Below are positions 8,403 through 38,571 of a stretch of DNA of 64,000 bases, in pieces. This stretch comes from Candidatus Omnitrophota bacterium (lineage in GTDB: Bacteria > Omnitrophota > Gorgyraeia > Zapsychrales > Zapsychraceae): contig JAIORP010000030.1 in the NCBI GenBank assembly GCA_021108075.1, forward strand, positions 133 through 64,132. Direction: 5' to 3'. The notes below the pieces were generated by a model. It ran no database searches. It saw nothing but the letters and a program-made list of their open reading frames with translations, and was not told the DNA's origin. Numbering within the stretch: position 1 is the stretch's first letter; every line of letters begins with the position of its first letter. A program made the position numbers and the translations under genes.

Positions 8403-8404
8403 AA

Positions 8405-19448: not shown

Positions 19449-19641
19449 ATGGATCTGTGGATAAAGACGGTTTCGATGATCCCTTGATGTAATAACCGTG
19501 TGAGTATGCTCGATTGATTGAGTGTATCTTGAATTCTGTCGGGGCCTTAGAGTTTGCTTCGCCTGCTTGTACTCTGGGACGACGTTCAGATTTTGATCAC
19601 ATCTACTGATTTAAATAAGTGAATAGAAAGGAGGTGAATTC

Positions 19642-20058: not shown

Positions 20059-20082
20059 TAGTATAACGACTGCTAGAAAAGA

Positions 20083-20121
20083 ATGGTCCTTATCCTTAAT
20101 TTGAATGAGGGCCATTTTTTT
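20083..20121 (+). terminator. Rho-independent terminator after the lysine-rich gene
   Basis: The stem AATGGTCCT...AGGGCCATT is followed by T7. Confidence 0.5.
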
Positions 20122-20327
20122 ATGCCGGAGGACTGCCTGCGGTTTTTCCCCAGTGACGGATATATTGTTTATTCCGACCTGTTTGTTGATATGTTGCACG
20201 GAATATGATTTGACTTTTGAGGTGAGAGCGATTATTCTGTAGTCACCTTTTTAAGAATATTACCCTCTACGATGATGACAGTTAACCGTAAGATATCAGA
20301 CTGTTTCACGACTAATTTAACAATATC

Positions 20328-23323: not shown

Positions 23324-25840
23324 ATGAAATTAAAAATATTAATATTACTTTTTAGTGTTCTCTCATTCACTTCCATATTCCAACCTGACATGCTTTTTTC
23401 TACCGCTTGGGCTAAGAATCAGGAGAAGGAATTGTTCCTGGTTGCTCAAAAAGCATTTGAAGATGGTTTTTATGATGTCGCGATTAGATACATTGAACAA
23501 TTGATACAGGAATATCCACAGACGGAACACCTGGTGCAGTCGAAATTATTGTTAGGTCAATGTTATTTCTTCCAGAGCCAATATTTAAAGGCCTATGATA
23601 TTTTTAACAGCTTGCTTAAATATGCCGAATTTAAGGATGCGACATTATTTTGGTTGGGAGAAACTTTTTTAAAAGGCATGGATTATGGCCAGGCAGAAAA
23701 GAATTACCGGCAGTTGATCGCATTATTTCCCGAGTCATCCTATGCGCCGCAGGCGTATTATTCTTTGGGGTGGACATATTTTGAACAGGAAAAATATGCG
23801 GATTCCCAACAATCGTTTGCCGAATTCGTTGATAAATACCCGCGCCATCAGTTAGCAGAAGATGCCGCTTTTAAGGTCGGTGAGTCTTATTTTCATTTGC
23901 GGGAATATAATGACGCGATTAATGCCTTTAAGAATTATTTGCAGTATTATCAACAAACAGGCCGCCATGCTGAAGCCTATTTTTATTTGGCCGAATCTTT
24001 TTATTACCAGGATGAATATCAGCAAGCTGTTGATTATTACCGTTTGTCTGTGGATAAGGCATTAGATAAGAGGTTGATTATGATGAACAGTTTAAGCTTG
24101 GGATGGGGTTATTTAAAATTGATGAATTATGAGGACTCGGAACGCAGTTTTAGAGCGGCTTTAGAACTGTCTTATGAGAAAAAAATTCCTTCGGATGATA
24201 TTTATTTAGGGTTAGCGGGGTTATATGTTGAGCAAAAGAGGTTTAATGAAGCTTTAACAGCATATGATAAATTGATTCAGGAATATCCCCAAAGTTCAAG
24301 AATGATTGACGCTTTACTGGGCAAAGCCAATATCCATTATTTGCTTGAAGAATACGATCAAGCGATAACGACATATAAAACTGTCATTGAAAATTTTATT
24401 GCATTAAATTCAGACGGAAACACCTTGTCCGACCAAATGTATGATGACCTTTTGGAAAAAACATATTTTGGGCTTGCTTGGGCTTATTTGAAAAAGGGAG
24501 ATCTGAATCAATCGATCATAGCTTTTGAGACGATTAAAGACAAAGCCAAAAGTAAGGTTGTTAAGATTAGTGCCTTAACGCAGATTGGTGATGCTTTTCA
24601 AGATGTTGACCAGCTTGAGCGGGCCGTTGGTATTTACGATCAGATCCTAAAGGACTATACGGATAGTCCCTATGCGGACTACGTTCAATATCGTCAAGGA
24701 ATTGCTTTGTTGAAAATGGGTGAGATTGAAGCTGCAACGCTTTCTTTTCAAAGCCTGCAATTGAACTTTCCACAAAGCAGCTATCTCAATGATGTTGAGT
24801 ACTATCTTGCAGTAGCCTATTTTAAAAAAGGTGATTGGTTGACAGCAAAAGACCATATCGAGAAATTTTTAACAGACAAATCTTATAATTATGAGTTCGG
24901 AGCCGAGGCTTATTATATTTTGGCGCTGACCAATTTTAATATCCCGGACTATCAGGCGGCCTTAAAGACATTCCAGAAAATTGTTAGGGGTTATCCTCAA
25001 GAAAGAATGATTATTCGGACGTCTGAACTTAGTATTGCCAAGTGTTATTATAAATTGGGCAAGGTTAATGAAGCGTTAAAGAAATTTAAAATACTTATTT
25101 TTAAATATCCTGAAACAGAAATATCCCAGGAAGCTTTGATTTGGTTGGGGGATCATTATTTGGAAGCAGGCGATTATAATAATGCGGTTGCTTATTATAA
25201 ACAATTTATTGAGATTTTTCCCGGCAGCCCTAAAATTAGCATCATTTATTATGAGCTCGGTCAAGCTTATATCGCGTCAGAAGCCTATGACAAGGCTGTT
25301 AATGTGCTGAAGAAAGTTAGTGACCCAAAAGACGGGGATGTTTATGTCAAAGCCAAGTTAGCCATCGCCGATATTTTTGCCCGGGACTTTGAATCTGAAT
25401 CTGCCATTGAAACTTATGAAAATATTATCTATCATTCTCCAGAATTTAAGCGTGACGCCTATGTGAAAATGGCGGGTGTGTATAAAAAGATTTCCGACTA
25501 TGATAATACGCTGGTCGCGTATCAAAAAGCTTTAGAATCTAAAAGGGGGTTGAGTGCCATCAAGAACGTGCAGTTACAGTTTTTTATTGCTGAAACGTAT
25601 GAAATTTTGAATCAAAGAGACCTGGCGGTCAAAGAATATTTTAGAATTCCGTATTTATATGAAAAAAAAGTCGAATGGGTTGTGCGGTCCTACTTAAGGA
25701 TCGCGAAATTATTTGAGCACCAGGAGAGGTGGGATGATGTTAAGCTGATTTATCAGAAAATTATTGAGTTAAAGACAGATGAATCGGTTTTTGCTGAAGA
25801 ACGTATTGAATGGCTTCGTGAGCATAATCACATCAAATGA
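23324..25840 (+). CDS. Large secreted tetratricopeptide-repeat (TPR) protein (838 aa)
   Basis: It has an N-terminal signal peptide (LILLFSVLSFTSIF...AWA). More than 15 TPR-like units (YY.LG..Y, AI..Y..L...YP) run throughout. It heads the ExbBD and pilus gene block. Confidence 0.7.
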   Translation: MKLKILILLFSVLSFTSIFQPDMLFSTAWAKNQEKELFLVAQKAFEDGFYDVAIRYIEQLIQEYPQTEHLVQSKLLLGQCYFFQSQYLKAYDIFNSLLKYAEFKDATLFWLGETFLKGMDYGQAEKNYRQLIALFPESSYAPQAYYSLGWTYFEQEKYADSQQSFAEFVDKYPRHQLAEDAAFKVGESYFHLREYNDAINAFKNYLQYYQQTGRHAEAYFYLAESFYYQDEYQQAVDYYRLSVDKALDKRLIMMNSLSLGWGYLKLMNYEDSERSFRAALELSYEKKIPSDDIYLGLAGLYVEQKRFNEALTAYDKLIQEYPQSSRMIDALLGKANIHYLLEEYDQAITTYKTVIENFIALNSDGNTLSDQMYDDLLEKTYFGLAWAYLKKGDLNQSIIAFETIKDKAKSKVVKISALTQIGDAFQDVDQLERAVGIYDQILKDYTDSPYADYVQYRQGIALLKMGEIEAATLSFQSLQLNFPQSSYLNDVEYYLAVAYFKKGDWLTAKDHIEKFLTDKSYNYEFGAEAYYILALTNFNIPDYQAALKTFQKIVRGYPQERMIIRTSELSIAKCYYKLGKVNEALKKFKILIFKYPETEISQEALIWLGDHYLEAGDYNNAVAYYKQFIEIFPGSPKISIIYYELGQAYIASEAYDKAVNVLKKVSDPKDGDVYVKAKLAIADIFARDFESESAIETYENIIYHSPEFKRDAYVKMAGVYKKISDYDNTLVAYQKALESKRGLSAIKNVQLQFFIAETYEILNQRDLAVKEYFRIPYLYEKKVEWVVRSYLRIAKLFEHQERWDDVKLIYQKIIELKTDESVFAEERIEWLREHNHIK

Positions 25841-25856
25841 TGTTTTGTGCCATCTA

Positions 25857-25939
25857 ATACCAATTCCATTAAATAATGACCAAACCCAATTCTGCTTTTC
25901 AGAATTAAGATAGAACAATTTATTAATGGATTTGGTATA
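25857..25939. repeat. Palindromic intergenic repeat element, copy B
   Basis: ATACCAATTCCATTAAATAAT ... ATAGAACAATTTATTAATGGATTTGGTATA, with the inner hairpin ATTCTG-CTTTT-CAGAAT. It is homologous to copy A at 17228-17331. Confidence 0.7.
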
Positions 25940-25988
25940 ACTTTGAATGAATTGAAACCGTTGTTTGTAACCGGAGGAGGAATCGATA

Positions 25989-26645
25989 ATGAGTAATGGT
26001 ATCTGGGAAATGAATTTGTGGCAGTTAATTAAGACGGGCGGGCCGATAATGTACCCGATATTGCTTTGTTCCCTTTTTGCTTTTGCCATTATAATCGAGA
26101 AAATAGTTTATTTTTCGATTATCAGAGAAAATGTTCCTGCTTTAAAAAGACAGGTTTTTGAGCATGTGAAAAAGAATAAAATCAAAGAAGCCATAGCGGT
26201 TTGTGATAATCAACGGACACCGGTAGCAAAAATACTCAAGGCCGGGATCGTCAAATTTGGAGCTTCCCGTGACAAAATAAAAGAAAATATTGAAGATATA
26301 AGTTTGTTTGAAATACCGAAGTTAGAAAAGAGATTGCCGGCGTTGGCGACGATAGCGCATATTACCCCGTTGTTGGGATTATTAGGGACGGTAACTGGTA
26401 TGGTTTCCAGTTTTCATACGATTCAGGTCCGTGCGGCTACTATGAACCCTGTGACGCCAGGTGATTTAGCTGGAAGTATTGGGGAAGCCTTGTTTACAAC
26501 GGTTGCCGGATTAATGGTGGCTATTCCGACTTTTGTTGTTTACAACTACCTTGTTAGCCGGGTTAATGGTTTTATTTTAGAGATGGAAAGAGGCGCAACC
26601 GAGATTGTTAACCTCATCTGCCAAATTTCTGAATCGGGAGTTTAG
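25989..26645 (+). CDS. MotA/TolQ/ExbB-family proton channel
   Basis: It has three transmembrane segments and the family motif ...TPLLGLLGTVTGMVSSF... It is 218 aa with a GGAGGAGG ribosome-binding site. Confidence 0.8.
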   Translation: MSNGIWEMNLWQLIKTGGPIMYPILLCSLFAFAIIIEKIVYFSIIRENVPALKRQVFEHVKKNKIKEAIAVCDNQRTPVAKILKAGIVKFGASRDKIKENIEDISLFEIPKLEKRLPALATIAHITPLLGLLGTVTGMVSSFHTIQVRAATMNPVTPGDLAGSIGEALFTTVAGLMVAIPTFVVYNYLVSRVNGFILEMERGATEIVNLICQISESGV

Positions 26646-26687
26646 TGAAGACGACATTTCTATTGGAAAATTAAAAGTGGAGTTCCT

Positions 26688-27089
26688 ATGAGATTCAGAA
26701 GACGAACGAAGTTAGAATATGGATTGGAGCAAATTGATATCGCGCCTTTGGTCGATGTTATTTTTCAGCTTTTGATATTTTTTATGTTATCGTCCTCATT
26801 TACATATCATTCGAGTATAAACGTGAAGCTTCCTAAGGCTGTTACGAGTGACTTGATTAAACAAGAAAATTTTGTCGTTACGGTGACAGAAGATAATGTG
26901 CTCTATTTAAATGGGGATATTATTTCATTGAAAGATTTAAAAAAGTCCTTGTCGACCTACAAAAAGGATCAACCCATTCTTATCAAGTCTGATCGACGTG
27001 CATATCTCGGTAGGATCGTTGATGTATGGGATTTATGCCGTAACCTTGGAATTGACAAGATTAACATCGCGACAGATCAAAATAACTAA
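26688..27089 (+). CDS. ExbD/TolR-family biopolymer transport protein
   Basis: It has a single N-terminal transmembrane segment (IDIAPLVDVIFQLLIFFM) and is 133 aa. It is canonically placed after ExbB. Confidence 0.8.
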   Translation: MRFRRRTKLEYGLEQIDIAPLVDVIFQLLIFFMLSSSFTYHSSINVKLPKAVTSDLIKQENFVVTVTEDNVLYLNGDIISLKDLKKSLSTYKKDQPILIKSDRRAYLGRIVDVWDLCRNLGIDKINIATDQNN

Positions 27090-27520
27090 TGGCAAATAAT
27101 ATTTTAAATCATGAATGGCTACGGCCAGTTAAATTCCTTATGGTGTCCTTGGGCTGCCATCTAATCGTGATCCATTTGTTCTCGGTCTCTTTCACCGCCC
27201 AGCCAGTCATGCCGAAACCGAATTTTGTTTTTTTGGGATCGATTTTAGATTCTAAAGATATTTCTCGATATGTTTCGCAAACCCCATCGAATAGTGACGC
27301 CGTAGAAGACTCTCACATTGATTTTTTCGGTCGTCATTTATATCAATATAAGATGAGCAAGCCGTTCGTTCAGAATGTTAAGGCCCGCCACAAGCAGACA
27401 GAGATGCGGACTGTGTTTGAAATTGAATCAATCGAGCCGGAAGAAGGGGTGATGAGAGATACCGCTGAAGAAGAATTCGAGTTCAAGATTCCTGAGTATA
27501 ATCCGTTACGGTTGCAATAA
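27089..27520 (+). CDS. Hypothetical membrane-anchored protein in the TonB/TolA position, lacking a TonB C-terminal domain
   Basis: It has an N-terminal transmembrane helix followed by QPVMPKP and an acidic C-terminus. Its start overlaps the ExbD stop (TAATGG). Confidence 0.35.
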   Translation: MANNILNHEWLRPVKFLMVSLGCHLIVIHLFSVSFTAQPVMPKPNFVFLGSILDSKDISRYVSQTPSNSDAVEDSHIDFFGRHLYQYKMSKPFVQNVKARHKQTEMRTVFEIESIEPEEGVMRDTAEEEFEFKIPEYNPLRLQ

Positions 27521-27535
27521 TGGCGGGATAATTCC

Positions 27536-27769
27536 ATGATCACATTAAGTTTTTCTTTTGCCATTTCATTTTTTTTATCTTTATGGATATCCATTGTTTT
27601 TGTCATGTGGATATTATATAATGACCACGATAGTTATGTTCTGAAAGAATTATTAAAGGTTGTCCAATGTCCTTATTGCACACATGTTTTTTGGGGAATG
27701 GCTGATAAAGAACTGTCTTCCTGTCCGCATTGTAAGAGTTATGTTAACCTTGAGGAGCCGAAAAGATAA
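27536..27769 (+). CDS. Small membrane protein with a C-terminal Cys4 zinc ribbon
   Basis: It has a transmembrane segment (ISFFLSLWISIVFVMWIL) followed by CPYC...CPHC. Confidence 0.4.
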   Translation: MITLSFSFAISFFLSLWISIVFVMWILYNDHDSYVLKELLKVVQCPYCTHVFWGMADKELSSCPHCKSYVNLEEPKR

Positions 27770-28084
27770 ATGCTAAAAGTTCTGTCCGAAAATAATAAAG
27801 GCGTTGTCTTTGTGACGGTCATAATGATCATTATGGTGATTATGGTGCTGGCCGTCAGTATTGTGAGTGTGAATTTAAACCAAGTGATAGCAACGGAAGA
27901 AGAATATAAGAGGGCTCAAGCGGAGATTCTTGCTATGGGGGCTTTCAGGTATTTTCACGCGAACTATGTGGACAGTGCTTCAGCCAACTCTTTGGTGTAT
28001 TTAAGAACCATTGATGATGTGACCTACACCGTTAATTCGATTTTGTCCGCATCCGGACAATTAAATATTGTTGTTACATACTAG
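27770..28084 (+). CDS. Hypothetical single-pass membrane protein, possibly pseudopilin-like
   Basis: It has one N-terminal hydrophobic helix (VVFVTVIMIIMVIMVLAVSIV) and no G/FTLIE prepilin motif. Its start abuts the previous stop. Confidence 0.3.
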   Translation: MLKVLSENNKGVVFVTVIMIIMVIMVLAVSIVSVNLNQVIATEEEYKRAQAEILAMGAFRYFHANYVDSASANSLVYLRTIDDVTYTVNSILSASGQLNIVVTY

Positions 28085-28255
28085 ATTTTTTTAAAAATGA
28101 CATCCTGCCAATAAGTTAAATAAAATATTCGACAGAAAAAAATCACATTTGAATTGACAAAGAAGTGCCTGTATTGTCTAATATTTTTAGTATTATATTC
28201 TATTAAAAATATATATATTCTTAATCATTAAACTTAGAAGAGTGCGGGCATTAAT

Positions 28256-29875
28256 GTGGTCTTAAAAATTATTTTTAAGATGATGTTATCGCGTCAGAAG
28301 CTCTTCCAATACGACATTACACACATGGGGGAAAAAAAACAGATAGCAACTTTTTGGGGAGACAATGCCCTCTATTTTATAGAGGCAAATCAGTCTTCCG
28401 CCTCCAACGGATTCCATGTCCCGTTTGATCACAAGCGAACGTCTGCCGATGAGAATCAAGTCCTTACGTCGGATAATATGGAACTGTGTTCCCGCGTTCA
28501 AAACGCTTTCCATCAGAACAACATACAAAATGCTATTGTCAACCTGTCTTTGCCGATTAAAGACATCATTTTTCGTTCCTTTATGATCCCCATGATGCAG
28601 TCTAACGAAGTTGCCGGGGTTATCGCCTTTGAAGTGAAAAAATATATTCCGTTTTCTTTAGATGAACTTTCTTATTCTTTTCATCCGGTTGTTGTCGATG
28701 GTGCCAATGATAAGAGGATACGCATTATCTTTGTCGCTATTAAAAAGAACTCATTGGAAAAATATATAGATATTTTGGAACAAGCTTCTTTAAATGTTGA
28801 CGTGATTGAACCCGCTCCGTTGAGTTTGATACGCCTTTTAGTGCATAAAAATATCCTTTCTTCTCAAAAAGCTTTGGCCCTTGTTGAAAAAGAAGATATG
28901 ACAGGTAAGATTATTATCGTTGAGAACAATATCCCCCAGTTTGTTCGGGAATTTCATCTTCGGTCAGCTGCTGACTCTCAAGACCCGGATGAAGATCAGA
29001 CTATCAACCGTTTGATCAATGAAATTCGGATTTCTTTAGATTATTTTAACCGACACGAAAATCAAATTTCTATCGAACAGATGTATCTTTTAACCGATCA
29101 GTATGGAACCAGGATATCAGAGCAAATAAAGGATGAGTTGGAGGTTGATGTCGTGCTTGTCGATAAAGCTCAGCTTATGGAGGGGATTCCCGGACATGAT
29201 TCGGGATTTTTAAAGGCCTACGGGGCGAGCTTGGCCGGTGTCATAACGATGCCCGCTTCGTTTAATTTATCCGGTGGAAAACCGCGTTCGATTAGTCTCG
29301 ATAAAAATAGCATTAATGTTAAGGCGTTAGTCGCATCCCTGTTGAAAGTTTCTATTTGTTGTGTTCTAGTCCTTGGTTTAGCTTTTTATGCGAAGGTTAA
29401 AATTGTTAGCGGAACAAAGCAAGAGATGATTGCTTTTACGCAGAAATTGGATATGAATAAAGATTCTTTGAAGGAAAAATTGGAACAGCATAATATAACT
29501 TTACAAAATCGATTTGATAATATTAAGAGTATTCGTTCCCATAGTCAAGTCGGTTTTTTTTTGGATACGATCCCGACTTTTTTATTGGATGGGATGTGGA
29601 TCAAGTCTTTAGAAATTTATTATCCGCCTGCAATCCTTAACTCAACCGGTGGTGCCCCGCAAGACGCTGGTCCGGTGATCAATTTATCGGGCTATGCTTA
29701 CGTTGATGATAAGAAGGAACAGTTCAGCATAATAACTTTATTCCTGAAGAGCTTGAAGTCCAATAAAGATTTAAAAAAGTATTTCAATGAAATCGATTTA
29801 GAGACAGTTACGGCTCAGAAGTTTAATGAATACGATGTTACTTTTTTTAAAATTAAATTTCGGAAAAAATTATGA
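28256..29875 (+). CDS. Type IV pilus assembly PilM-like (actin-like ATPase) fused to a PilN-like transmembrane domain
   Basis: It is 539 aa. The cytoplasmic N-terminal part is PilM-like (IRIIFVAIKKNSLEKYIDILEQASLNVDVIEPAPLSL). An internal transmembrane helix (LLKVSICCVLVLGLAFYA) is followed by about 170 aa of PilN-like periplasmic sequence. PilO, PilP and PilQ genes follow. Confidence 0.5.
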   Translation: MVLKIIFKMMLSRQKLFQYDITHMGEKKQIATFWGDNALYFIEANQSSASNGFHVPFDHKRTSADENQVLTSDNMELCSRVQNAFHQNNIQNAIVNLSLPIKDIIFRSFMIPMMQSNEVAGVIAFEVKKYIPFSLDELSYSFHPVVVDGANDKRIRIIFVAIKKNSLEKYIDILEQASLNVDVIEPAPLSLIRLLVHKNILSSQKALALVEKEDMTGKIIIVENNIPQFVREFHLRSAADSQDPDEDQTINRLINEIRISLDYFNRHENQISIEQMYLLTDQYGTRISEQIKDELEVDVVLVDKAQLMEGIPGHDSGFLKAYGASLAGVITMPASFNLSGGKPRSISLDKNSINVKALVASLLKVSICCVLVLGLAFYAKVKIVSGTKQEMIAFTQKLDMNKDSLKEKLEQHNITLQNRFDNIKSIRSHSQVGFFLDTIPTFLLDGMWIKSLEIYYPPAILNSTGGAPQDAGPVINLSGYAYVDDKKEQFSIITLFLKSLKSNKDLKKYFNEIDLETVTAQKFNEYDVTFFKIKFRKKL

Positions 29876-30459
29876 ATTTATTAAAAAAATTAAACAGTAT
29901 TGATATGCAAGATCTAAAAAATATTGATGTCGGCCAACTTGTTGATCTTTTGCGGTCGCGTGTCGATCTTTTAGCTAATGTTATTGTTGTTCTGTTGACG
30001 ATCATCCTTGCCGTCTATTGGCCGATCCAAAGCCTAAAACAAAAAAAGGATAATCAATCTTCAATTAATCAATACAAAGAAAAACAGGATATTTTGGACC
30101 AGCACGCCGTGATTGAGTCTGATTACAATGCCTATGTCGAAACATTTCCTAAATCGGTTTCAAGTGATCAATTGACAAATATCATTTCGATCATGGCTGT
30201 TAAAAACAGTGTACAGATTGTATCTTTTTCTCCGGCACAAAGAAATTCAAACGATTATCGTGATATTATAAATGTTCGAATTCAAATTGCGTCAGAAGAT
30301 TATGCCAATATAATACTATTTGTGAAAGATCTGGAGGCTTCAGAATATTCGATGCGTGTCGAAAGGTGGATCAGTGACTCCGCGCGTACGATATATAACG
30401 AACAAGGGAGTATGATTAAGGCGGATTTAGAAATCGCTTCCGTGTCTTTAAAATTATGA
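29872..30459 (+). CDS. PilO-like type IV pilus assembly protein
   Basis: It is 195 aa, with a single transmembrane segment near residue 35 and a periplasmic domain. Its position is between pilM/N and pilP/Q, and its start overlaps the previous stop. Confidence 0.45.
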   Translation: MNLLKKLNSIDMQDLKNIDVGQLVDLLRSRVDLLANVIVVLLTIILAVYWPIQSLKQKKDNQSSINQYKEKQDILDQHAVIESDYNAYVETFPKSVSSDQLTNIISIMAVKNSVQIVSFSPAQRNSNDYRDIINVRIQIASEDYANIILFVKDLEASEYSMRVERWISDSARTIYNEQGSMIKADLEIASVSLKL

Positions 30460-30962
30460 AAGATTGCATTTTATTGATTATCATTTTGGGATTTTTGATG
30501 AGTTTTGATTTTGTTTGTGCGAATGAACAAACAAAAGAAGACAGTGTTTCTGATGATACGATCGAAAAAATGAGGGTAAATTATTCGATGAACCCGTTTA
30601 AACCACAGTTACCGAAAAAGACAGTTCCGCCGGTAAACACCTCTGTTCGACAACCGCCGCGACAGCTTCCGGTTAACCCTTCGAAGAAAACACCGTCGAA
30701 CAGGACGCCGTCCGCTGTGCCGCAGACAACCTCAAATCAAACGGACCCTCAGAACATCGATATCCCGATTGTTGATCCGGTGGTGACGTTGCCCCCATTG
30801 GATATTTCAGGGTTGATTTGGGATACCGATCGGCCTCAGGCTATTATTAATAATAAAATTTTGGAAATTGGTGATATTGTTGATGAATTTAAAATAATAC
30901 ACATCTATAAGCAGGGTGTTACCGGGCATTATCAGGGAAAGGATTTTACGATAACACCTTAA
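30456..30962 (+). CDS. PilP-like secreted protein
   Basis: It is 168 aa with a signal peptide, a Pro-rich linker and a C-terminal beta-domain (ILEIGDIVDEFKIIHIY). It lies immediately upstream of the secretin gene. Confidence 0.4.
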   Translation: MKDCILLIIILGFLMSFDFVCANEQTKEDSVSDDTIEKMRVNYSMNPFKPQLPKKTVPPVNTSVRQPPRQLPVNPSKKTPSNRTPSAVPQTTSNQTDPQNIDIPIVDPVVTLPPLDISGLIWDTDRPQAIINNKILEIGDIVDEFKIIHIYKQGVTGHYQGKDFTITP

Positions 30963-30978
30963 TGAGGAGTATGCAATA

Positions 30979-32586
30979 ATGAGACAAAAGCTTCCTTGCT
31001 TGGTTTTCTGGACGTTTTTATCGGTTCTCTTTTTCGTCCAGCCTGTTTTGAGTTACGACTGGGACGAATATGATTTATATTCAGGTGACAACGAAAACTT
31101 AAAGATCATTTCTATGGATTTTAAGAATGCGGCTTTAGGCGATGTGTTAAAGATTTTTTCTCAACAATCCGGCATGAATTTTATTTCTTCATCAGAAATT
31201 GCTGATAATAAAATTAATCTTTATCTGGAAAATGTTCCGGTTAAAGAAGCGCTTGAGCGGATTTTGACCGCTAACCAATTAACATATGAGTTAAAAACAG
31301 GCAGCAATATTTTTGTTGTTAAACCATTAAATGTCCCTGAACTTCAACTTGAAACAAGAATTTATCAGCTAAAACATGCAACGGTGCCTTCATCTAAAAT
31401 AAATTCGACTTTGTCTGGCTTCGGTGACGAGCAGGGCTCAGAAGAGGGGGGTGGTTCTGGCGGTGAATCGGGGGAGAGTGGCGGTAGCGGAGGGGAGTCC
31501 GATGATAGTAAGGGCATTCTTGGAATGGTTAAAAATATGTTATCAGAAAAGGGCAACATGGTTGAAGATGCCCGTACGAACAGCATTATCATCACCGACA
31601 TTTCAACGCAGTTCGCCAGGATTGAACTTGCCATCGCCCGTCTGGATGTACGCATTCCGCAAATTTTGATTGAGGTTGAGATGCTGGATATTTCATCCAA
31701 TACAGCTGATTTGATAGGGACCAAATTTGGGGATACTCCTGTTACTTTTTCCGCCGGGGAGAAAGACGGCTCGTTCCCTTTTGAAGAAGATAATATCATT
31801 GATGATGCTGGCGGTATCCGGACGACTGCCTATGAGGACGCGCAGTATCGGGTCAGTACGCTTTCTTTTAAAGGACTTACATTTTTAATGCAGTTTTTAC
31901 GCACACAGACAGATACGAACAATTTAGCCCGGCCTCGTATTTTAACGTTGAATAATGAAACAGCCGAGATTCATATTAAAACAGATGAAGCGATCGGTAT
32001 TTCTGCGAATACGACTTCCGCTGAAGGAACAGCAACGAGTGTCAATGAAGCTGAACGTGTTGCGACGGGTGTGTTTTTGACTGTGACGCCGCAAGCAAAT
32101 ACACACACCGGAGAAATAATGCTGGCGATTGAACCGAAGGTGATTCAGGCCAGGACCGGAGGAACGTTTAGCGGGCAGTCTTTCAAGGATCCTGAAGAAC
32201 GTGGCACAAAATCTATCTTACGTGTACAAAGTGGTCACACGGTTGTGATCGGCGGGTTGTTGCGCACAGACATTTCTGAAGTTAAGACGAAGGTGCCCCT
32301 GTTGGGTGATGTGCCTGTTGTTGGTAAAGTTTTTCAGCATTTGGATAAGACCGAAACGAAACGGGAGCTTATTATTTTTATTACTCCAAGTATCGTAAGT
32401 GAAGATCGAGCAAAAATTTCTTACTCAGAAAGGGAACCTATGATGCGCGAACGGTCCTTTTACAACGAGCGCAATGAATCGATCCGGGAAGACTTACAAC
32501 GTGAAGAGTTGAGAGATAACATTTTGAAGCGTGAAGACGCGACTCCGTATTATTCCATTGGTATTGATAAAGAATTAAATCATTAG
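30979..32586 (+). CDS. Secretin (PilQ/GspD family)
   Basis: It has a signal peptide and an N0-like domain (NFISSSEIADNKINLYLENVPVKEALERIL). It has the secretin C-domain motif VPLLGDVPVVGKVF...RELIIFITPSIV. It contains a Gly/Ser/Glu-rich insert. Confidence 0.85.
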   Translation: MRQKLPCLVFWTFLSVLFFVQPVLSYDWDEYDLYSGDNENLKIISMDFKNAALGDVLKIFSQQSGMNFISSSEIADNKINLYLENVPVKEALERILTANQLTYELKTGSNIFVVKPLNVPELQLETRIYQLKHATVPSSKINSTLSGFGDEQGSEEGGGSGGESGESGGSGGESDDSKGILGMVKNMLSEKGNMVEDARTNSIIITDISTQFARIELAIARLDVRIPQILIEVEMLDISSNTADLIGTKFGDTPVTFSAGEKDGSFPFEEDNIIDDAGGIRTTAYEDAQYRVSTLSFKGLTFLMQFLRTQTDTNNLARPRILTLNNETAEIHIKTDEAIGISANTTSAEGTATSVNEAERVATGVFLTVTPQANTHTGEIMLAIEPKVIQARTGGTFSGQSFKDPEERGTKSILRVQSGHTVVIGGLLRTDISEVKTKVPLLGDVPVVGKVFQHLDKTETKRELIIFITPSIVSEDRAKISYSEREPMMRERSFYNERNESIREDLQREELRDNILKREDATPYYSIGIDKELNH

Positions 32587-32603
32587 AAAAAGGAAATATT
32601 TAA

Positions 32604-34343
32604 ATGGCCCGATTAAAACTAGGTGAGATTTTAATCAATCAAGGTTTAATTTCTCAAGAGCAATTGCAAAAGGCAATTGATACTCAGAAGAGAGAGAAAC
32701 GCGGCCGGATTGGAGAAGTTTTAATGAAGCTTGGAATCATCACCGAAGAGTCCATGAATTCGGCGTTGGCATCCCAGTTGGGCATTCCGTATTATTCTTC
32801 GGATAATACGGATCTTCTCAAACCTCGCGAAGACCAGGGATTAGAGTCCATCCTGGACGGTGATTTTGCCAGAAAAAATTTGGTCCTACCCCTTTCCAAA
32901 CATATGAATTCGTTAACCTGTGCGGTCAATGATCCCCTTGATTTGCTTTTGCTAGACAATTTAAGGCGAATTGCGGGCTGTGAGGTCAATATCGTTTTGA
33001 CCACGAAGAATGCTTTGCAAAAAGCGATTGCGGATTTTTATTATTCTGATAAAGGTGATGGGAAATCGAGCATGCTTAATCAGGCCGTTGAAAAATCTTA
33101 TTCATCAAATCAATCCAGTTCCTTTGTGACATCCGGGCAGAAAGAATCGGCTTCGGCTGAATTAAGTTTAGACAAACTGATCGAGAAGGCCGGTGAGGCC
33201 CCTGTCGTAAAATTGGTCGATCTGATCATCCGTCAGGCGATTGATGAGCGGGCGAGTGATATTCATATTGAGCCCTATAACAGTAAAATCAATTTACGAT
33301 ACCGGATTGATGGCAAGTTGTATAATATCCCACCGCCTGCGCCACATTTGCATTTACCGATTGTTTCACGTATTAAGATTTTATCCAAACTGGATATCGC
33401 TGAAAAACGTTTGCCTCAAGATGGCGCGATTTCTGCCAAGCTGGAAGACAGGACGGTTGATATTCGTATCTCAACAGTTCCAACGGTCTGGGGTGAGAAA
33501 GTTGTTATGCGTATTCTCGATAAAGGGGCTGTTCCTCTGGAACTCGCCAGCTTGGGATTTTCCCCTAAGCAGATTGATATGCTGCGCAACGCGTTAAGCT
33601 CGCCTTACGGCCTGTTTTTTGTTACCGGACCGACAGGAAGTGGTAAGTCAACAACACTCTATGCGGCCTTAAACGAGACAATTGACCCATCAAAAAATGT
33701 TATGACCGCGGAAGATCCGGTCGAATATAAGATCGACGGGATTAATCAGGTCGCCATTCGAACCGAAATCGGATTGACTTTTGCGATAGCACTAAAAGCG
33801 TTCCTACGTCAAGATCCGGATGTCATTATGGTCGGGGAGGTCCGTGATATTGAAACAGCGTCTATCTGTGTCCGCGCCGCTTTGACGGGTCACTTTGTCT
33901 TGAGTACGTTGCATACGAATGATGCCGCATCAGCAATAACTCGTTTGATTGATATTGGCGTGCCGCATTATTTGTTAACGCCATCTTTGATCATGATTTT
34001 AGGGCAACGGTTATGTCGTCGATTGTGTTCAAAGTGTAAGGAACCTTATGAGCCCACACCAGACCAACACGCCGGGAATAAATTTACCAGTGATTTAATT
34101 TACAGGGGCAAAGGTTGTGAAGACTGCAACAGCACCGGCTATAAAGGCCGTCTTGTTATATCAGAGGTCCTGGCTATCGATGATTCGATTCGAGCGGCGG
34201 TTTCAAATGGAGCAACATGGGCTGAATTAAAAGAATTAGCCCGTAAGAATGGGATGGATACGATTTTTGAATCAGGACTCCGTTTAATTGAACAGGGTTT
34301 AACAAGCTACGATGAGGTTTGTCGAGTGACAATGGAATATTAA
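32604..34343 (+). CDS. Type IV pilus / T2SS assembly ATPase (PilB/GspE/MshE family)
   Basis: It has Walker A GPTGSGKSTT and a tetracysteine zinc motif (CSKCK...CEDCNSTGYKGR). Its N-terminal domain carries two tandem MshEN-type motifs. Confidence 0.9.
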   Translation: MARLKLGEILINQGLISQEQLQKAIDTQKREKRGRIGEVLMKLGIITEESMNSALASQLGIPYYSSDNTDLLKPREDQGLESILDGDFARKNLVLPLSKHMNSLTCAVNDPLDLLLLDNLRRIAGCEVNIVLTTKNALQKAIADFYYSDKGDGKSSMLNQAVEKSYSSNQSSSFVTSGQKESASAELSLDKLIEKAGEAPVVKLVDLIIRQAIDERASDIHIEPYNSKINLRYRIDGKLYNIPPPAPHLHLPIVSRIKILSKLDIAEKRLPQDGAISAKLEDRTVDIRISTVPTVWGEKVVMRILDKGAVPLELASLGFSPKQIDMLRNALSSPYGLFFVTGPTGSGKSTTLYAALNETIDPSKNVMTAEDPVEYKIDGINQVAIRTEIGLTFAIALKAFLRQDPDVIMVGEVRDIETASICVRAALTGHFVLSTLHTNDAASAITRLIDIGVPHYLLTPSLIMILGQRLCRRLCSKCKEPYEPTPDQHAGNKFTSDLIYRGKGCEDCNSTGYKGRLVISEVLAIDDSIRAAVSNGATWAELKELARKNGMDTIFESGLRLIEQGLTSYDEVCRVTMEY

Positions 34344-34365
34344 TTTATTAATAAAGGGATAAAGA

Positions 34366-35604
34366 TTGCCAAAATATTCATATATCGTTAAAAATAAGGC
34401 CGGTGTTGAAGAAAAAAATGTTGTGGATGCCGTTAGCCAACAATCTCTTATAGAGAAGTTGCAACGCGAAGGTTACTTTATTGTTCGCGTGTTAGAAATC
34501 AAAACGACGTCCCATTTAAAGAAGAAAACATCCAAAAAAAACGAAAAGAGAAAATTTAGTCGTAAAAAAACTAAGTTGGAGGATCTTTTATCTTTTTCCC
34601 GTCAGTTAGCAACGATGTTAGAAGCGGGGGTTTCACTGATCCGCAGCCTTGATGTCATCCTGATTCAGGTGCAGAGTGAAGAGCTATACAATATATTAAA
34701 AGCCTGCAAGAAAGATGTCGAACAGGGTATCGCGTTAAGTGTTTCTTTGTCCAAGTATCCGAACGTCTTTAACCAGTTTTGGGTCAGCCTTATTGAAGTG
34801 GGTGAGGCTTCGGGTACTGTCCCTGTCGTTTTAAACAAACTTTCTTTTTATTTAGAACAACAGGCTGAATTCCGGGCGACCATTATTTCGGGCCTCATTT
34901 ATCCCGCTATTTTATTTATGGTCGCTGTTGGGGCTATTGCATTTTTTGCCCTGTTTGTGGGTCCGCGTTTTCAGTCGATTTTTGATTCAATGAACGTGGA
35001 TTTACCGATGATTACGGTTGTTTTATTGGCATCCTTTTCTTTTCTTAAAAAGAACATATTTTTGATTATCGCCGGAATCGTCGCGGGTGTATTCTTTTTA
35101 AAAAAATATATCAAAACATATCAAGGTAAATTACTTTTTGAAAAAGCTATGTTCAATATGCCTGTTTTTGGTGAGGTGTACCGTTTAATTATTGTTGAAC
35201 GCTTTACATCTCAGATGTCCATCTTGATTGATGCCGGTGTACCCATTTTATACGCCTTGGATATATCCGAACGTTTAGTCGATAATAATTCTTGTGCCAT
35301 GATTATCAGCACAATTAAAGAAGGCGTCCGCGAAGGGGAATTATTGGTCGCGCCCATGACGCGCAGTGGTTTCTTTCCAGCTATGTGTTTGCAGATGATT
35401 ATGGTCGGGGAAGAAACAGGTGAATTGAGTAAAATGTTGAAACACGTGTCAGCTTATTATCAAGATCTGGTTTCAACTTTTATGAAAAGGTTTGCGACGA
35501 TTGTTGAGCCATTTATGTTGGTTTTTATGGGGGGTGTCATCGGAACCATTGTTCTGGCCATGTTTTTACCAATGTTTAATATCGCACAACTAGGGGGAGG
35601 TTGA
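34366..35604 (+). CDS. Type IV pilus inner-membrane platform protein (PilC/GspF family)
   Basis: It has two GspF repeats and about 412 aa of polytopic membrane sequence. Confidence 0.85.
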   Translation: MPKYSYIVKNKAGVEEKNVVDAVSQQSLIEKLQREGYFIVRVLEIKTTSHLKKKTSKKNEKRKFSRKKTKLEDLLSFSRQLATMLEAGVSLIRSLDVILIQVQSEELYNILKACKKDVEQGIALSVSLSKYPNVFNQFWVSLIEVGEASGTVPVVLNKLSFYLEQQAEFRATIISGLIYPAILFMVAVGAIAFFALFVGPRFQSIFDSMNVDLPMITVVLLASFSFLKKNIFLIIAGIVAGVFFLKKYIKTYQGKLLFEKAMFNMPVFGEVYRLIIVERFTSQMSILIDAGVPILYALDISERLVDNNSCAMIISTIKEGVREGELLVAPMTRSGFFPAMCLQMIMVGEETGELSKMLKHVSAYYQDLVSTFMKRFATIVEPFMLVFMGGVIGTIVLAMFLPMFNIAQLGGG

Positions 35605-35741
35605 TAATATATAAGAAGCTTCAGAATATGTTTATAAATATTAGTTATACGCATTAAAAAAAATAAGTTTTATCTATCTATTCAATAGAAAATCGGTTAA
35701 ATTATAAATGTAAAAAAAATGAAAAAATTTATCCGCTCTCT

Positions 35742-35770
35742 TTGACAACTATCGATTTATATGGTATACA
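35742..35770 (+). promoter_or_regulatory. Sigma70 promoter, TTGACA-17-TATACA
   Basis: TTGACA at 35742-35747 and TATACA at 35765-35770, about 290 nt upstream of the major pilin gene. Confidence 0.5.
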
Positions 35771-35940
35771 TTTCTTAGAAACATGTTGAGCTTTATTGTT
35801 AAATGTAAACTACTCGTAAGGGTACGACACAAAACTATAGGGCCCTGGAAGTGCGGTATTTGAGCACTTTAATTTATAGATGAAGGAATAAAACGACATC
35901 TGCAGGGGTAGCCAGTTGCCAATAAAAAAGGTTGTGTATA

Positions 35941-35974
35941 CCTATTCTACGATAGCTAGAATAGGTTTTTTTTT
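35941..35974 (+). terminator. Intrinsic terminator or attenuator inside the pilin leader region
   Basis: The stem is CCTATTCTA / TAGAATAGG (9 bp perfect) with loop CGATAGC, followed by T9. Confidence 0.6.
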
Positions 35975-36058
35975 GAGGCTTCTTGGAGAAAGGGAAATTA
36001 GAAAAAATAGAACAATAATGTCAGGAAAATCAAAAAGGAAAGTAAGTAAAAAAGGAGC

Positions 36059-36481
36059 TTGAACATGAATTTAAATAACAAAAGTGGTTTTACATTACTC
36101 GAAATTATCATTGTCATCATCATCGTTGGTGTACTCGCCAGTTTAGCATTACCTCGATTTTTCAGCACCGTGGAATTCTCCAGAAGTACAGAAGCTCTTT
36201 CAGCATCAAGTTCAATCCGTCAATCATTAGAGCGATGTTATTTAGGGAATAATGGGAATTATGTCGGCTGTACGCTAGCCGCGATTGACTTAGCTGATCC
36301 CGGCGGATCACCAGGTGCTCATTTCGCGTATGCTATTGCTGGTCAAAGCGCCACAGGATACACAATCACAGCGACAAGAAACGCTATTAATGGCGGTGAC
36401 GGCACATCAGCAATCACCCTCACTCAATCTGCTGCGGGTGTTGCAAGAGCGGGTACAGGCGTTTTCGTTGGCATTAAATAA
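36059..36481 (+). CDS. Type IV pilin (probable major pilin)
   Basis: It has the class III signal ...KSG/FTLLEIIIVIIIVGVLASLALP. AAGGAG sits 6 nt upstream. A long hairpin follows it. An alternative start at 36065 is possible. Confidence 0.85.
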   Translation: MNMNLNNKSGFTLLEIIIVIIIVGVLASLALPRFFSTVEFSRSTEALSASSSIRQSLERCYLGNNGNYVGCTLAAIDLADPGGSPGAHFAYAIAGQSATGYTITATRNAINGGDGTSAITLTQSAAGVARAGTGVFVGIK

Positions 36482-36510
36482 AACGGGTTGATTTTTTAAC
36501 CTTTTAAGGT

Positions 36511-36565
36511 CCTAAATAGCGACATCGAAGTTTTATTCATTAAGACTTCGATGTCGCTATTTAGG
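36511..36565 (+). promoter_or_regulatory. Perfect 21-bp inverted repeat (hairpin) between the major and downstream pilin genes
   Basis: CCTAAATAGCGACATCGAAGT-(13-nt loop)-ACTTCGATGTCGCTATTTAGG. There is no U-tract. Confidence 0.6.
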
Positions 36566-36591
36566 CGTCCTGAAACAAATGGTGATTGCTT

Positions 36592-36975
36592 ATGATATTC
36601 AGTCAGAAAGGTTTCACATTATTAGAGGTATTGATCACTATGATCATTATTGGGGCAATGGCTTCCATCGCCTGGCCCAGCTTTGTTGTCACAATTGAAC
36701 GGGCAAAATCGGCTGAAGGGGTTCAGATCCTGGAAGTCATAATGGGTTCCCAAAAGATATATAAATTAGAAAATGGGGTTTATTCCAATACTATGGCAAA
36801 CTTAGAAGTCTCAATCCCTGCCGCCAGTAATTTTAATGCCCCGACATTGAGCACGTCCAATCCAATCGCTTCTATTCAACGAAAAGATAATTTATATACA
36901 TTGTCCATTACGGACGCCGGGGTAATCGCCTGTTCCAATGGTACTGTAACATACTGTCAAAAGATAGGGTATTAG
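36592..36975 (+). CDS. Type IV pilin or minor pilin
   Basis: It has the leader MIFSQKG/FTLLEVLITMIIIGAMASIAWP. Confidence 0.8.
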   Translation: MIFSQKGFTLLEVLITMIIIGAMASIAWPSFVVTIERAKSAEGVQILEVIMGSQKIYKLENGVYSNTMANLEVSIPAASNFNAPTLSTSNPIASIQRKDNLYTLSITDAGVIACSNGTVTYCQKIGY

Positions 36976-36978
36976 AAC

Positions 36979-37404
36979 ATGAAGAACTTAAAGGGTTTTA
37001 CATTGCTGGAAATTATTATTGTTGTCATTTTGCTGAGTATTATCGCGGGATTTGCTATTCCCTCGTATAACAAATCCATGCGCCGCACGCATGAACAGGA
37101 TGCTGTTGTTCAATTGACAGCCCTGCATGTGGCAAATGAATTATATGAAGCTCAGGCTGATCAATATTTACAGGGTGCGGGACTATCGTTGACGCAGGTT
37201 AACAATGGACTCCACATCAGTATCATGGCCAATGAGATGACTTATAGCTATACGTCAGGGGCTGGCAGTTATGCCGCAACATCTTCGTGGAACGAGACAG
37301 GAACAAGCCATGACTTCACTTTACGGGTGAATCAAACAACGATTTCTTCGTCCAATCCCTGTTGTTCAGCGGGTACTTGTCCAACGGTTGCTAATTGTTC
37401 TTAA
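36979..37404 (+). CDS. Type IV pilin or minor pilin
   Basis: It has the leader MKNLKG/FTLLEIIIVVILLSIIAGFAIP. Confidence 0.8.
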   Translation: MKNLKGFTLLEIIIVVILLSIIAGFAIPSYNKSMRRTHEQDAVVQLTALHVANELYEAQADQYLQGAGLSLTQVNNGLHISIMANEMTYSYTSGAGSYAATSSWNETGTSHDFTLRVNQTTISSSNPCCSAGTCPTVANCS

Positions 37405-37418
37405 AAAGAAGGTTATTG

Positions 37419-37760
37419 ATGTTACGGATAAGAAAGAAAAATGGGGTGTCTATCGTTGAAGTCGTTGTTACGGCCATTATTTTTTCCATTGCGGCTTTTG
37501 GGGTTTTTTCGACCATCGCTGTTCTGCGTCCACAGGGCCAGGATTCAATGAAAAAGCTGCAGGCGCTTTATACGGGGAAGAGTATTTTAGATGAATTGAT
37601 TATGGCTGTTGATGCTCACACGTGGGGTTCTGGTTTGAGTAATTTGGCCCTGGGACATCATAGTCGTGTGATCGGTAATTACACCATTAATTATTATGTA
37701 GCCGATGTTACCGGCCAGGGTTTGCGGCAAGTCTATATGAATGTGAGTTATCCGGATTAA
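37419..37760 (+). CDS. Minor pilin-like protein with a degenerate prepilin motif
   Basis: It has ...KKNG/VSIVEVVVTAIIFSIAAFGVF. The start is chosen at ATG 37419 with AAGAAGG upstream. The ORF track extends to 37395. Confidence 0.55.
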   Translation: MLRIRKKNGVSIVEVVVTAIIFSIAAFGVFSTIAVLRPQGQDSMKKLQALYTGKSILDELIMAVDAHTWGSGLSNLALGHHSRVIGNYTINYYVADVTGQGLRQVYMNVSYPD

Positions 37761-37761
37761 T

Positions 37762-38367
37762 ATGAAGTATATTTTTTTAAAAAATAAAAAAGGTCTGACG
37801 TTAACGGAACTGATTGTTGCCACCGTCATGATCGCGATTGTCATGGTCGGCGTTGCCGCCTTTACGTTTGCGGTGAAAAGCATTCAAGGCACAAGTAGAA
37901 AGGCGTCGATCACGTCCATGCGTTTAGCAGCTGTTATGAGCAAGCTGCGCAAGGATGCGATGCTTGCTGTCGGAGACATTAATAATCTCGGCATCGTTTC
38001 TAACAATACAGGAGATGATAGAGGATTGTGTTTCCGACATGATGCAGATAATGATCCAGCGACGTATACGGGTGATCAATGGGTCTGTTATGTGACATAT
38101 GGCACCGGAGATACCGGTTTGCGAGTTTGTGAAGGATTAGCCTCAGCAGATACCGATTGCGGCCAGGCTGGTCCACCGAACGATAAGCAGTTAATTGAAT
38201 TAACAAGCAAGAATTATTTTTCCATCTCATTGGACGGACAAGGGCGTTTAGCTGAATTGCAGATAACGCTAACTGCTCGGGATGATTCTTCTGCCGTGGC
38301 AGACCCGTTAGAAAATCCTGAGTACACACTCACCACAAAGGTCTTTCCTGTTGGGCATAGCTGGTAA
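37762..38367 (+). CDS. Minor pilin-like protein
   Basis: It has ...KKG/LTLTELIVATVMIAIVMVGVAAF. It is 201 aa. Confidence 0.6.
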   Translation: MKYIFLKNKKGLTLTELIVATVMIAIVMVGVAAFTFAVKSIQGTSRKASITSMRLAAVMSKLRKDAMLAVGDINNLGIVSNNTGDDRGLCFRHDADNDPATYTGDQWVCYVTYGTGDTGLRVCEGLASADTDCGQAGPPNDKQLIELTSKNYFSISLDGQGRLAELQITLTARDDSSAVADPLENPEYTLTTKVFPVGHSW

Positions 38368-38471
38368 TGATTTGTATATTTATTCTGTCTCTCCCCAAAT
38401 ATATGGAAATGCTTGTCATAAATCTTGTGTTTTGATAATATGAAATCTCCAAAATGAAATTTATATTAATT

Positions 38472-38544
38472 GGGTCGGTAGCTCAATTGGGAGAGCACAT
38501 GGTTCGCAATCATGAGGTTGGGGGTTCGATCCCCCTCCGATCCA
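38472..38544 (+). tRNA. tRNA-Ala (anticodon CGC)
   Basis: It folds into a cloverleaf by hand. The acceptor stem GGGTCGG/CCGATCC has the G3:U70 Ala identity pair. The D-loop is AATTGGGA and the anticodon loop is TTCGCAA. The T-loop is TTCGATC and the discriminator is A73. CCA is not encoded. A TTGTCA-17-TAATAT promoter lies upstream. Confidence 0.8.
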
Positions 38545-38571
38545 TTCTTAATAATTTTTTTTAATTTGTAT

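Follow-up and report, generated by a model that had tools for sequence, protein, structure and literature searches.

An ExbB/ExbD-type cassette embedded in a type IV filament locus of Candidatus Omnitrophota

Why should genes resembling those of an ExbB/ExbD motor driven by the proton motive force (PMF) lie within a type IV pilus locus? The question is raised by a 64,000-nucleotide stretch of a Candidatus Omnitrophota metagenome-assembled genome (MAG; contig JAIORP010000030.1), here called the window, in which positions 23324-38367 encode a large tetratricopeptide repeat (TPR) protein, ExbB and ExbD homologues, three small membrane proteins and a type IV filament machine. An earlier note on this DNA, made from its sequence, proposed either a PMF-assisted apparatus or two systems that are simply neighbors. 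Comparison with related genomes placed the ExbBD genes, as part of a four-gene cassette, beside pilus genes in at least 56 related species, which is more than chance. Of the two proposals, the first gains from this recurrence and from a pilin-like gene interleaved with the cassette; the second gains from housekeeping genes that are equally syntenic and from one clade that lacks the cassette. Overall, the cassette may well be functionally coupled to the pilus or secretion machine, the best-supported reading of the sequence data, at odds that we regard as about even.

The open reading frame (ORF) map places all 17 ORFs of the pil/ExbBD block on the + strand, in the order and at the positions that the earlier note had listed for 23324-38367, and the note's domain calls held in Pfam and NCBIfam searches. 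Shared direction is uninformative as operon evidence because 44 of the 46 ORFs of at least 150 amino acids (aa) in the window run on the + strand, and an operon argument from co-directionality was rejected for this reason. The upstream part of the block, on which the question turns, consists of the following features.

23324-25840, + strand: periplasmic TPR protein, 838 aa (TPR_6, TPR_2 and YfiO Pfam matches)
25989-26645, + strand: ExbB/TolQ/PocA-type proton-channel subunit, 218 aa (PF01618, 102 bits)
26688-27089, + strand: ExbD/TolR-type subunit, 133 aa, with transmembrane (TM) Asp23 in a PLVDV motif (PF02472, 98 bits)
27089-27520, + strand: TonB/TolA-like anchor, 143 aa, N-terminal TM helix with S-x3-H (His24) and a conserved FxFLGSIL motif
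27536-27769, + strand: membrane-anchored zinc ribbon, 77 aa, TM helix followed by CPYC…CPHC (weak Zn_ribbon Pfam matches)
27770-28084, + strand: probable PilX/GspK-like minor pseudopilin, 104 aa, with Gly11, about 22 hydrophobic residues and no Glu5
28085-28324, no strand assigned: AT-rich intergenic region of 240 bp with promoter-like sites

Conservation of this arrangement was assessed by a scan with a PilMN profile, one genome per species, which returned 342 relatives, of which the 80 best were retrieved; essentially all of these are Omnitrophota. Presence counts below give loci with the gene over loci with enough flank. Upstream of PilMN, ExbB was found in 56/60, ExbD in 58/62, the TPR gene in 50/52 and UvrA in 41/42 loci. 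Downstream, PilQ (66/66), PilB (60/60) and PilC (54/54) were present throughout. The co-localization across genomes that the earlier note had proposed as a check is borne out by these counts, and ExbBD–pilMN linkage holds down to 24% PilMN identity. Contigs anchored on the TonB-like gene gave the same picture, with UvrA-TPR-ExbB-ExbD upstream in 6/6 and pil genes downstream in 5/5 of those reaching past the cassette; the sixth ends at the TonB-like gene. Spacing is tight as well. Median gaps are about 58 bp for UvrA-TPR, 18.5 bp for TPR-ExbB, 5 bp for ExbB-ExbD, -4 bp for anchor-zinc ribbon and 2 bp for zinc ribbon-PilX-like, the last being 40 bp or less in 96% of cases (n = 52). In the window, the ExbD/anchor gap is -1 nt, the zinc ribbon and PilX-like genes are separated by 0 bp, and 240 bp lie between the PilX-like gene and PilM.

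From five loci (L073, L078, L091, L092 and L093) the genes for ExbB, ExbD, the anchor and the zinc ribbon are missing, and only these. All five keep the TPR gene, a DUF2582 gene, the PilX-like gene in its place, an HTH_17 gene and everything from PilM onwards. Compared by PilM and PilB, these loci group together beside lineages that have the cassette, which indicates one derived loss of the four genes. ExbB–ExbD–anchor–zinc ribbon is thus a unit cassette between the TPR and PilX-like genes, accessory to the locus and not part of its core. Two further loci (L043 and L071) have pil genes in another genomic context, with neither cassette nor TPR gene upstream, and in L086 the zinc ribbon and DUF2582 genes are separated by an additional pilin gene with a Pfam N_methyl match.

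Are the channel genes those of a motor? The best NCBIfam match of the window ExbB is TolQ, at 108 bits and under the equivalog cut-off; none of the Tol and Exb equivalog cut-offs (exbB, exbD, TolQ, TolR) is reached by the window proteins. Two ExbB TM threonines of the GTV and TT motifs, Thr134 and Thr171, are conserved without exception (66/66 relatives). The ExbD aspartate is more variable. This residue carries protons in those Ton, Tol and Mot systems that have been characterized, and its change in their ExbD, TolR and MotB abolishes function. Asp23 is present in the window (codon 26754-26756), whereas 24 of 63 relatives have Asn there and 2 have some other residue, a departure from Ton and Tol-Pal systems. 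Lineages with Asn may lack a working motor and no longer conduct protons; they may use the module structurally.

The three small membrane proteins had been described as orphans. No strong Pfam or NCBIfam match exists for any of them, in keeping with that description, but they can now be assigned as a TonB/TolA-like anchor, a zinc ribbon and a probable PilX/GspK-like protein. S-x3-H is the signature of TonB and TolA anchors, and the protein that the earlier note had placed in the TonB position does carry it. Across 29 diverse orthologues, His24 in the TM helix is the sole invariant column, with Ser or Ala usually four residues earlier. A profile search with the anchor family returned 235 relatives, mostly of about 210 aa. 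These long forms all have S12 and H16, followed by a conserved C-terminal domain (…IKRKISSGNLEADLL…), for which AlphaFold2 (AF2) predicted a short helix-strand-strand-helix-strand topology with a predicted local distance difference test (pLDDT) score of about 70-79. Pfam TonB_C did not match the long-form anchors, and Pfam does not recognize the domain. The 143-aa window anchor has neither TonB_C nor TolA domain III: its tail is low-complexity and ends in a conserved PYxPLRL, with no globular C-terminal domain in this lineage. Searches of PDB sequences with the anchor and PilX-like family profiles gave nothing meaningful. We assign the 27089-27520 family as TonB/TolA-like with moderate confidence.

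Such an anchor could be taken as a sign that the cassette is a classical energizer of TonB-type uptake. ExbB and ExbD belong to the corresponding Pfam families, the anchor has S-x3-H, long-form relatives have a TonB/TolA-like C-terminal domain, and A. baumannii TonB2 has been implicated in natural transformation (PMC8811193). Nevertheless, an uptake role appears quite improbable. Inspection of the window and of roughly 90 related loci revealed no TonB-dependent transporter, the window anchor has no C-terminal TonB-box-binding domain, and Pfam TonB_C misses even the long form.

The zinc ribbon follows the ExbBD genes closely. A pattern search found a four-Cys ORF between ExbD and PilM in 65/65 ExbD-bearing loci, with a TM helix followed by CPYC…CP(H/R)C in relatives; tblastn with the window protein recovered it in 51/62 loci, and it is missing in every locus without ExbBD. 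We infer that this ribbon, predicted to be cytoplasmic, is an uncharacterized fourth subunit of the cassette.

The gene at 27770-28084, which the earlier note had described only as a single-transmembrane protein, appears instead to encode a PilX/GspK-like pseudopilin, a call made mainly from sequence features. Gly11 is invariant in the family alignment and residue 5 is Thr. The N-terminus resembles that of GspK in NCBIfam (E = 7e-5, 22.5 bits versus a cut-off of 130), many homologues are named 'Tfp pilus assembly protein PilX' at the Joint Genome Institute (JGI), and PF14341 is recorded on one of them. The AF2 model (pLDDT 72.7) consists of a 58-residue helix and a three-stranded sheet in a 'lollipop' shape, and a Foldseek search with this model gave no significant match. 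The five prepilins reported earlier are all present, and this gene brings the number of pilin-like genes to six.

At the other end of the cassette lies the TPR protein, for which the earlier note had offered two identities, a PilF/Tgl-type pilotin and a CpoB-like Tol component. Neither fits. Its N-terminus is a Sec signal peptide (…STAWA↓KN) without a lipobox Cys, and it contains repeated YbgF-type and BamD-type units that exceed their NCBIfam cut-offs; the PilW and Tgl scores fall well short. A PilF/PilW/Tgl pilotin is excluded by these low scores together with the signal peptide, and where type IVa pilus (T4aP) systems have such a pilotin, a large non-lipoprotein TPR protein stands in the window. 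Canonical CpoB shares the YbgF-type repeats but is excluded by size (about 260 versus 838 aa), by context and by the fact that, where ExbBD is lost, the TPR gene remains beside the pil genes. In cassette-less loci it lies directly upstream of the pil genes, including L093, where UvrA is replaced.

Several observations favor functional coupling of the cassette to the filament machine: the linkage across genomes; the overlapping or abutting junctions, with TPR and ExbB closer together (median 18.5 bp) than the unrelated UvrA-TPR pair (about 58 bp); a PilX-like gene within the unit in every case; the loss of the four cassette genes alone, which leaves the TPR and PilX-like genes where they were; the continued proximity of the TPR gene to the pil genes after UvrA replacement; and the precedents from Pseudomonas and from type II secretion described below. 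Others weigh against it. Gene order among housekeeping neighbors is frozen, and compact genomes would make short gaps common. The clade of L073, L078 and L091-L093 keeps its pilus genes without the cassette, and L043 and L071 have theirs in other contexts. Finally, the ExbD aspartate is replaced by Asn in the 24 of 63 relatives noted above. Synteny alone cannot prove coupling, because PanC, AspDH, UvrA, tRNA-Ala and RsmE are equally conserved, and as a proof of coupling it was rejected.

The same data bear on the view that TPR-ExbB-ExbD-anchor, with or without the zinc ribbon, is a Tol/Ton-like system for envelope maintenance or cell division that is adjacent to the pilus genes merely through frozen gene order in a streamlined and strongly strand-biased part of the chromosome. 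The window shares with Ton and Tol-Pal systems the MotA_ExbB and ExbD Pfam domains, the channel threonines, the ExbD aspartate, the S-x3-H anchor and a TPR protein with YbgF/CpoB repeats. It differs from them in its anchor, which has no TonB_C or TolA domain III, and in having no TonB-dependent transporter. TolQ is the best NCBIfam match for ExbB, and the TPR repeats match tol_pal_ybgF (CpoB). Equally syntenic flanks (PanC, AspDH, UvrA, RsmE and tRNA-Ala), co-directional large ORFs and a clade whose pilus genes have outlasted the cassette are all consistent with mere adjacency. In addition, P. putida TonBm-PocAB is reported to maintain membrane integrity (work cited in PMC8597729). Adjacency alone is therefore a serious rival, although we consider it somewhat unlikely. 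All Tol and Exb equivalog cut-offs are missed, and neither TolB nor Pal is encoded in the locus or the window. The TPR gene keeps with the pil genes, not with ExbBD, upon cassette loss and UvrA replacement. A pseudopilin abuts the last cassette gene family-wide, and a second pilin lies inside the L086 unit. Clean deletion of an essential envelope system in one clade would also be unexpected, unless the system had been relocated.

What, then, is the machine that the cassette would serve? Its genes are as follows.

28256-29875, + strand: PilM–PilN fusion, GspL/MshI-like (PilM_2 and T2SSL Pfam matches above cut-off)
29872-30459, + strand: PilO/GspM-like protein (PF04350, 25.3 bits versus a cut-off of 22)
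30456-30962, + strand: periplasmic protein in the PilP position with a GspB (T2SSB)-like C-terminal domain (PF16537, E = 4.7e-5, below cut-off)
30979-32586, + strand: secretin with STN/N0, Secretin_N and Secretin domains (PF00263, 127 bits)
32604-34343, + strand: assembly ATPase of the PilB/GspE/MshE family with an N-terminal MshEN domain predicted to bind cyclic di-GMP (c-di-GMP) (T2SSE PF00437, 442 bits; MshEN, 55 bits)
34366-35604, + strand: platform protein PilC/GspF (T2SSF PF00482, two copies, 169 bits)
36059-36481, + strand: prepilin 1, probable major pilin, G↓FTLLE (N_methyl and ComP_DUS Pfam matches)
36586-36975, 36979-37404, 37395-37760 and 37762-38367, + strand: four further prepilins, tightly packed, each with Gly-1 and Glu5

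The likely start of the PilM–PilN fusion is Met24, at 28325, as the family consensus begins at residue 24; PilN (PF05137) is recorded on homologues of the fusion. The L088 orthologue of the PilP-position protein carries a PF16537 match. NCBIfam models did not assign the larger components to one system. The secretin scored 184 bits for PilQ versus 181 for GspD, both sub-cut-off. The ATPase scored 599 for PilB (cut-off 676) and 581 for GspE (cut-off 630), with a match to the c-di-GMP motif NF053729, and the platform protein scored 327 bits for GspF versus 289 for PilC, both below cut-offs. A class III signal, G↓(F/V/L)xxxE, is present in 5/5 prepilins, and N_methyl is above cut-off in 4/5, the fourth pilin scoring 19.2 bits versus 21.2. 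Prepilin 1 probably starts at ATG 36065, behind an AAGGAG site. Pilins 1 and 3 (36059-36481 and 36979-37404) also match ComP_DUS, the fold of pilins that are receptors for DNA-uptake sequences, at 29.6 and 27.5 bits versus a cut-off of 27.3; scores of this size are too weak for inferring DNA uptake.

Judged by its predicted proteins, the locus encodes a type IV filament machine that mixes traits of T4aP, MSHA and type II secretion system (T2SS) machines and has 5+1 pilins. The mixed label is used because NCBIfam scores do not separate the systems and because the PilMN fusion is GspL/MshI-like, the MshEN domain MshE-like and one pilin GspK-like. With all three systems it has a complete assembly set in common (PilM/N, PilO, PilP-like protein, secretin, ATPase, platform and pilins). 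It departs from them in the ExbBD-type cassette embedded in the locus, and neither a retraction ATPase nor a prepilin peptidase is encoded in the window. The absence of PilT and a prepilin peptidase from the block, pointed out previously, extends to the full window: among its 46 ORFs of at least 150 aa there is no PilT, prepilin peptidase (PilD/GspO), TolB, Pal or TonB-dependent transporter; a prepilin peptidase may be encoded outside the window. T4aP loci are nearly universal in Omnitrophota and have been classified as T4aP (Seymour et al. 2023). These bacteria are ultra-small and probably host-dependent or predatory, and their pili are thought to serve attachment (Seymour et al. 2023).

The earlier note had stated that canonical type IV pilus loci lack a motor of the ExbBD/TolQR type. 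A link between such motors and pili has a precedent all the same: the PocAB-TonB3 ('polar organelle coordinator') module of Pseudomonas, an ExbBD-TonB homologue encoded away from the pilus genes, is needed for type IV pili. In Pseudomonas, the pocA, pocB and tonB3 genes are presumably scattered, outside the pilMNOPQ and pilBCD operons. Mutants of P. aeruginosa in pocB or tonB3 are unpiliated, and pocA mutants mislocalize the PilMNOPQ subcomplex (PMC5285504). Carter et al. proposed contact between TonB3 and the PilQ N0 domain, as N0 resembles the signaling domain of TonB-dependent receptors (PMC5285504; PMC6321873). In a second precedent, the TonB-like bitopic protein ExeB binds the N0N1 domains of its secretin and is needed for secretin assembly (PMC4098917).

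Both precedents resemble the Omnitrophota locus in part. PocAB-TonB3 is likewise an ExbB/ExbD/TonB-homologous inner-membrane module, with a role other than nutrient uptake; the likeness rests on domain content and genomic association and may reflect homology to ExbBD or TolQR in general. In the window, by contrast, the module is encoded within the pilus locus and adjoins a pseudopilin gene. It also has a zinc ribbon as a putative fourth subunit, and its anchor in this lineage lacks a C-terminal domain. With GspA/GspB (ExeA/ExeB) it shares a PilP-position protein with a weak T2SSB (GspB) match and a secretin with STN/N0. The partner of ExeB is ExeA, an ATPase that binds peptidoglycan, rather than a proton channel, whereas the window has no ExeA homologue and ExbBD would supply the energy. 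Neither PocAB-TonB3 nor GspA/GspB is known to be encoded within a pilus locus.

If functional coupling holds, ExbB and ExbD would make up an inner-membrane stator powered by the PMF, and the His-bearing anchor would couple to this stator and span the periplasm. The anchor would then act on the outer pilus machine, the likeliest targets being the STN/N0 domain of the secretin, the GspB-like protein and the TPR protein. Stator action would promote assembly, placement or gating of the secretin, as with PocA/PocB/TonB3 and ExeB. A stronger version of coupling appears unlikely to us, namely that in much of the phylum the PMF stator, with its TonB-like arm and zinc ribbon, is an integral, co-expressed part of a pilus/T2SS-like nanomachine and acts mechanically on the secretin or the ring in the periplasm, in a hybrid of ATP and PMF power. 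Were it true, the stator would gate the secretin, aid insertion through the wall, or retract the filament without a nearby PilT.

That an ExbBD/TonB module can serve a type IV filament machine is a known idea; what is new here is that the module is embedded in the locus, that it has a zinc-ribbon subunit and that its anchor is truncated. Neither Seymour et al. (2023) nor two Omnitrophota preprints mention an association of ExbB/TonB with pilus loci, and literature searches turned up no earlier description of ExbBD within the pilus loci of Omnitrophota. The influence of ExbBD/TonB motors such as the Poc complex on type IV pili is still unexplained. To our knowledge, the same can be said of the PMF need of type II secretion. 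In model organisms the genes are scattered and the partners hard to guess, whereas here motor, arm, zinc ribbon, TPR protein and minor pilin form one tight unit in dozens of species. The candidate-partner set is small, and natural 'deletion mutants' (the cassette-less clade) and Asp-to-Asn variants are available.

Genes between the cassette and pilM differ among relatives. An HTH_17 (excisionase-type) gene occupies the region matching 28085-28324 in 39 related loci, not in the window, and a search of the 240-bp gap for an HTH_17 remnant found none. Just before pilM, many relatives have this helix-turn-helix (HTH) gene of the excisionase/MerR type, encoding about 60 aa (e.g. L004 11184-11369). 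One class of relatives also has a 68-aa DUF2582 winged-helix gene (e.g. L084, where the two genes lie at 11807-12064 and 10898-11104); both HTH genes are absent in the window. A cassette-less pil locus, L071, is preceded at 2851-8407 by genes with HD-GYP-type (HD_5), FecR and CHASE2-GGDEF domains, a set of neighbors indicative of c-di-GMP signaling.

These genes bring in a further alternative, a trans-envelope signaling device in which the state of the secretin or pilus would be sensed through STN in a FecA-FecR-like manner and relayed to the DUF2582 winged-HTH or HTH_17 protein, which would control the pil genes. The secretin N-terminus matches STN and, weakly, FecR_C; HTH_17 and DUF2582 genes lie between cassette and pilM in many relatives; and FecR-domain and GGDEF genes before pilM in L071, along with likely c-di-GMP control by MshEN and a riboswitch, are in line with signaling. 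We judge the device very improbable, as the window has neither HTH gene, the HTH genes persist on cassette loss, and the zinc ribbon has no anti-sigma or DNA-binding signature recognized by Pfam or NCBIfam.

Two gaps in the block had been labeled regulatory by the earlier note, and each contains candidate control elements: promoter-like sites at 28085-28324, where the revised PilMN start of 28325 sets the boundary, and a riboswitch-like element with a terminator at 35605-36064. The latter gap, 460 bp long and located before pilin 1, contains in order:

~35743-35771, + strand: promoter-like TTGACA-17-TATACA, called from sequence
35795-35924, + strand: c-di-GMP-I (GEMM-I) riboswitch-like aptamer (RF03167, 35.2 bits, E = 5.5e-5, below the gathering threshold of 59)
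35940-35975, + strand: intrinsic-terminator-like hairpin with a 10-bp stem and T9 run, a probable riboswitch expression platform

The window aptamer has an insertion of about 50 nt in its second hairpin. At the orthologous position in L005, L010, L011, L013 and L004 the element passes RF01051 at 64.1 to 42.2 bits versus a gathering threshold of 35, and nhmmer detected it in 20 related loci ahead of their first pilin gene (E < 0.01), the core being conserved in the alignment. Where 13/16 aligned copies have an unpaired G, the window has U, and its ligand may differ from the usual one. A stand-alone PilZ-domain gene lies at 59347-59811 on the - strand, which holds few large ORFs. Together, the MshEN domain of the ATPase, the riboswitch and the PilZ gene point to several predicted layers of c-di-GMP control.

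The remainder of the window is ordinary housekeeping chromosome of a Candidatus Omnitrophota MAG. Exact matches of window proteins exist on public metagenome contigs; homologues, plus a protein identical to the 104-aa pseudopilin, are labeled as Candidatus Omnitrophica/Omnitrophota MAGs. Upstream of the block lie a two-component system, genes for arginine and lysine biosynthesis, HPPK, PanC, AspDH and UvrA. Downstream are RsmE, a PMT/TPR protein, RecA, RecX, AlaRS, histidine genes and TrpE, followed further on by SecDF, Mfd, a SurA-like protein, PdxA, KsgA, the PilZ gene and GatA/GatB. An F1-like 'symbiotic ATPase', described beside Omnitrophota pili by Seymour et al. (2023), is absent; the two ORFs at 61004-63906 (479 and 481 aa) are GatA and GatB. 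The order HPPK-PanC-AspDH-(~80-aa ORF)-UvrA … tRNA-Ala-RsmE (17319-23129 and 38471-39312) is kept in L084, L086, L088, L089 and L091. This flanking order is unusually frozen, being kept where PilM is about 24% identical. The block ends at one further feature.

38471-38545, + strand: tRNA-Ala(CGC), 103 bp past the last pilin, the conserved downstream boundary of the locus

The measured distance agrees with the figure of about 100 bp given before, and L004, L005, L010, L013 and L026 likewise have a tRNA (RF00005) past their pilin genes and on the same strand. The RsmE ORF (Methyltrans_RNA and PUA domains), listed at 38512-39312 on the + strand, overlaps this tRNA gene, and its probable start is an ATG at about 38572 (MYRFYTP…). 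At the end of the L010 locus (1-54, - strand) lies a fragment matching group II intron domains D1-D4 (RF02001, 46.8 bits).

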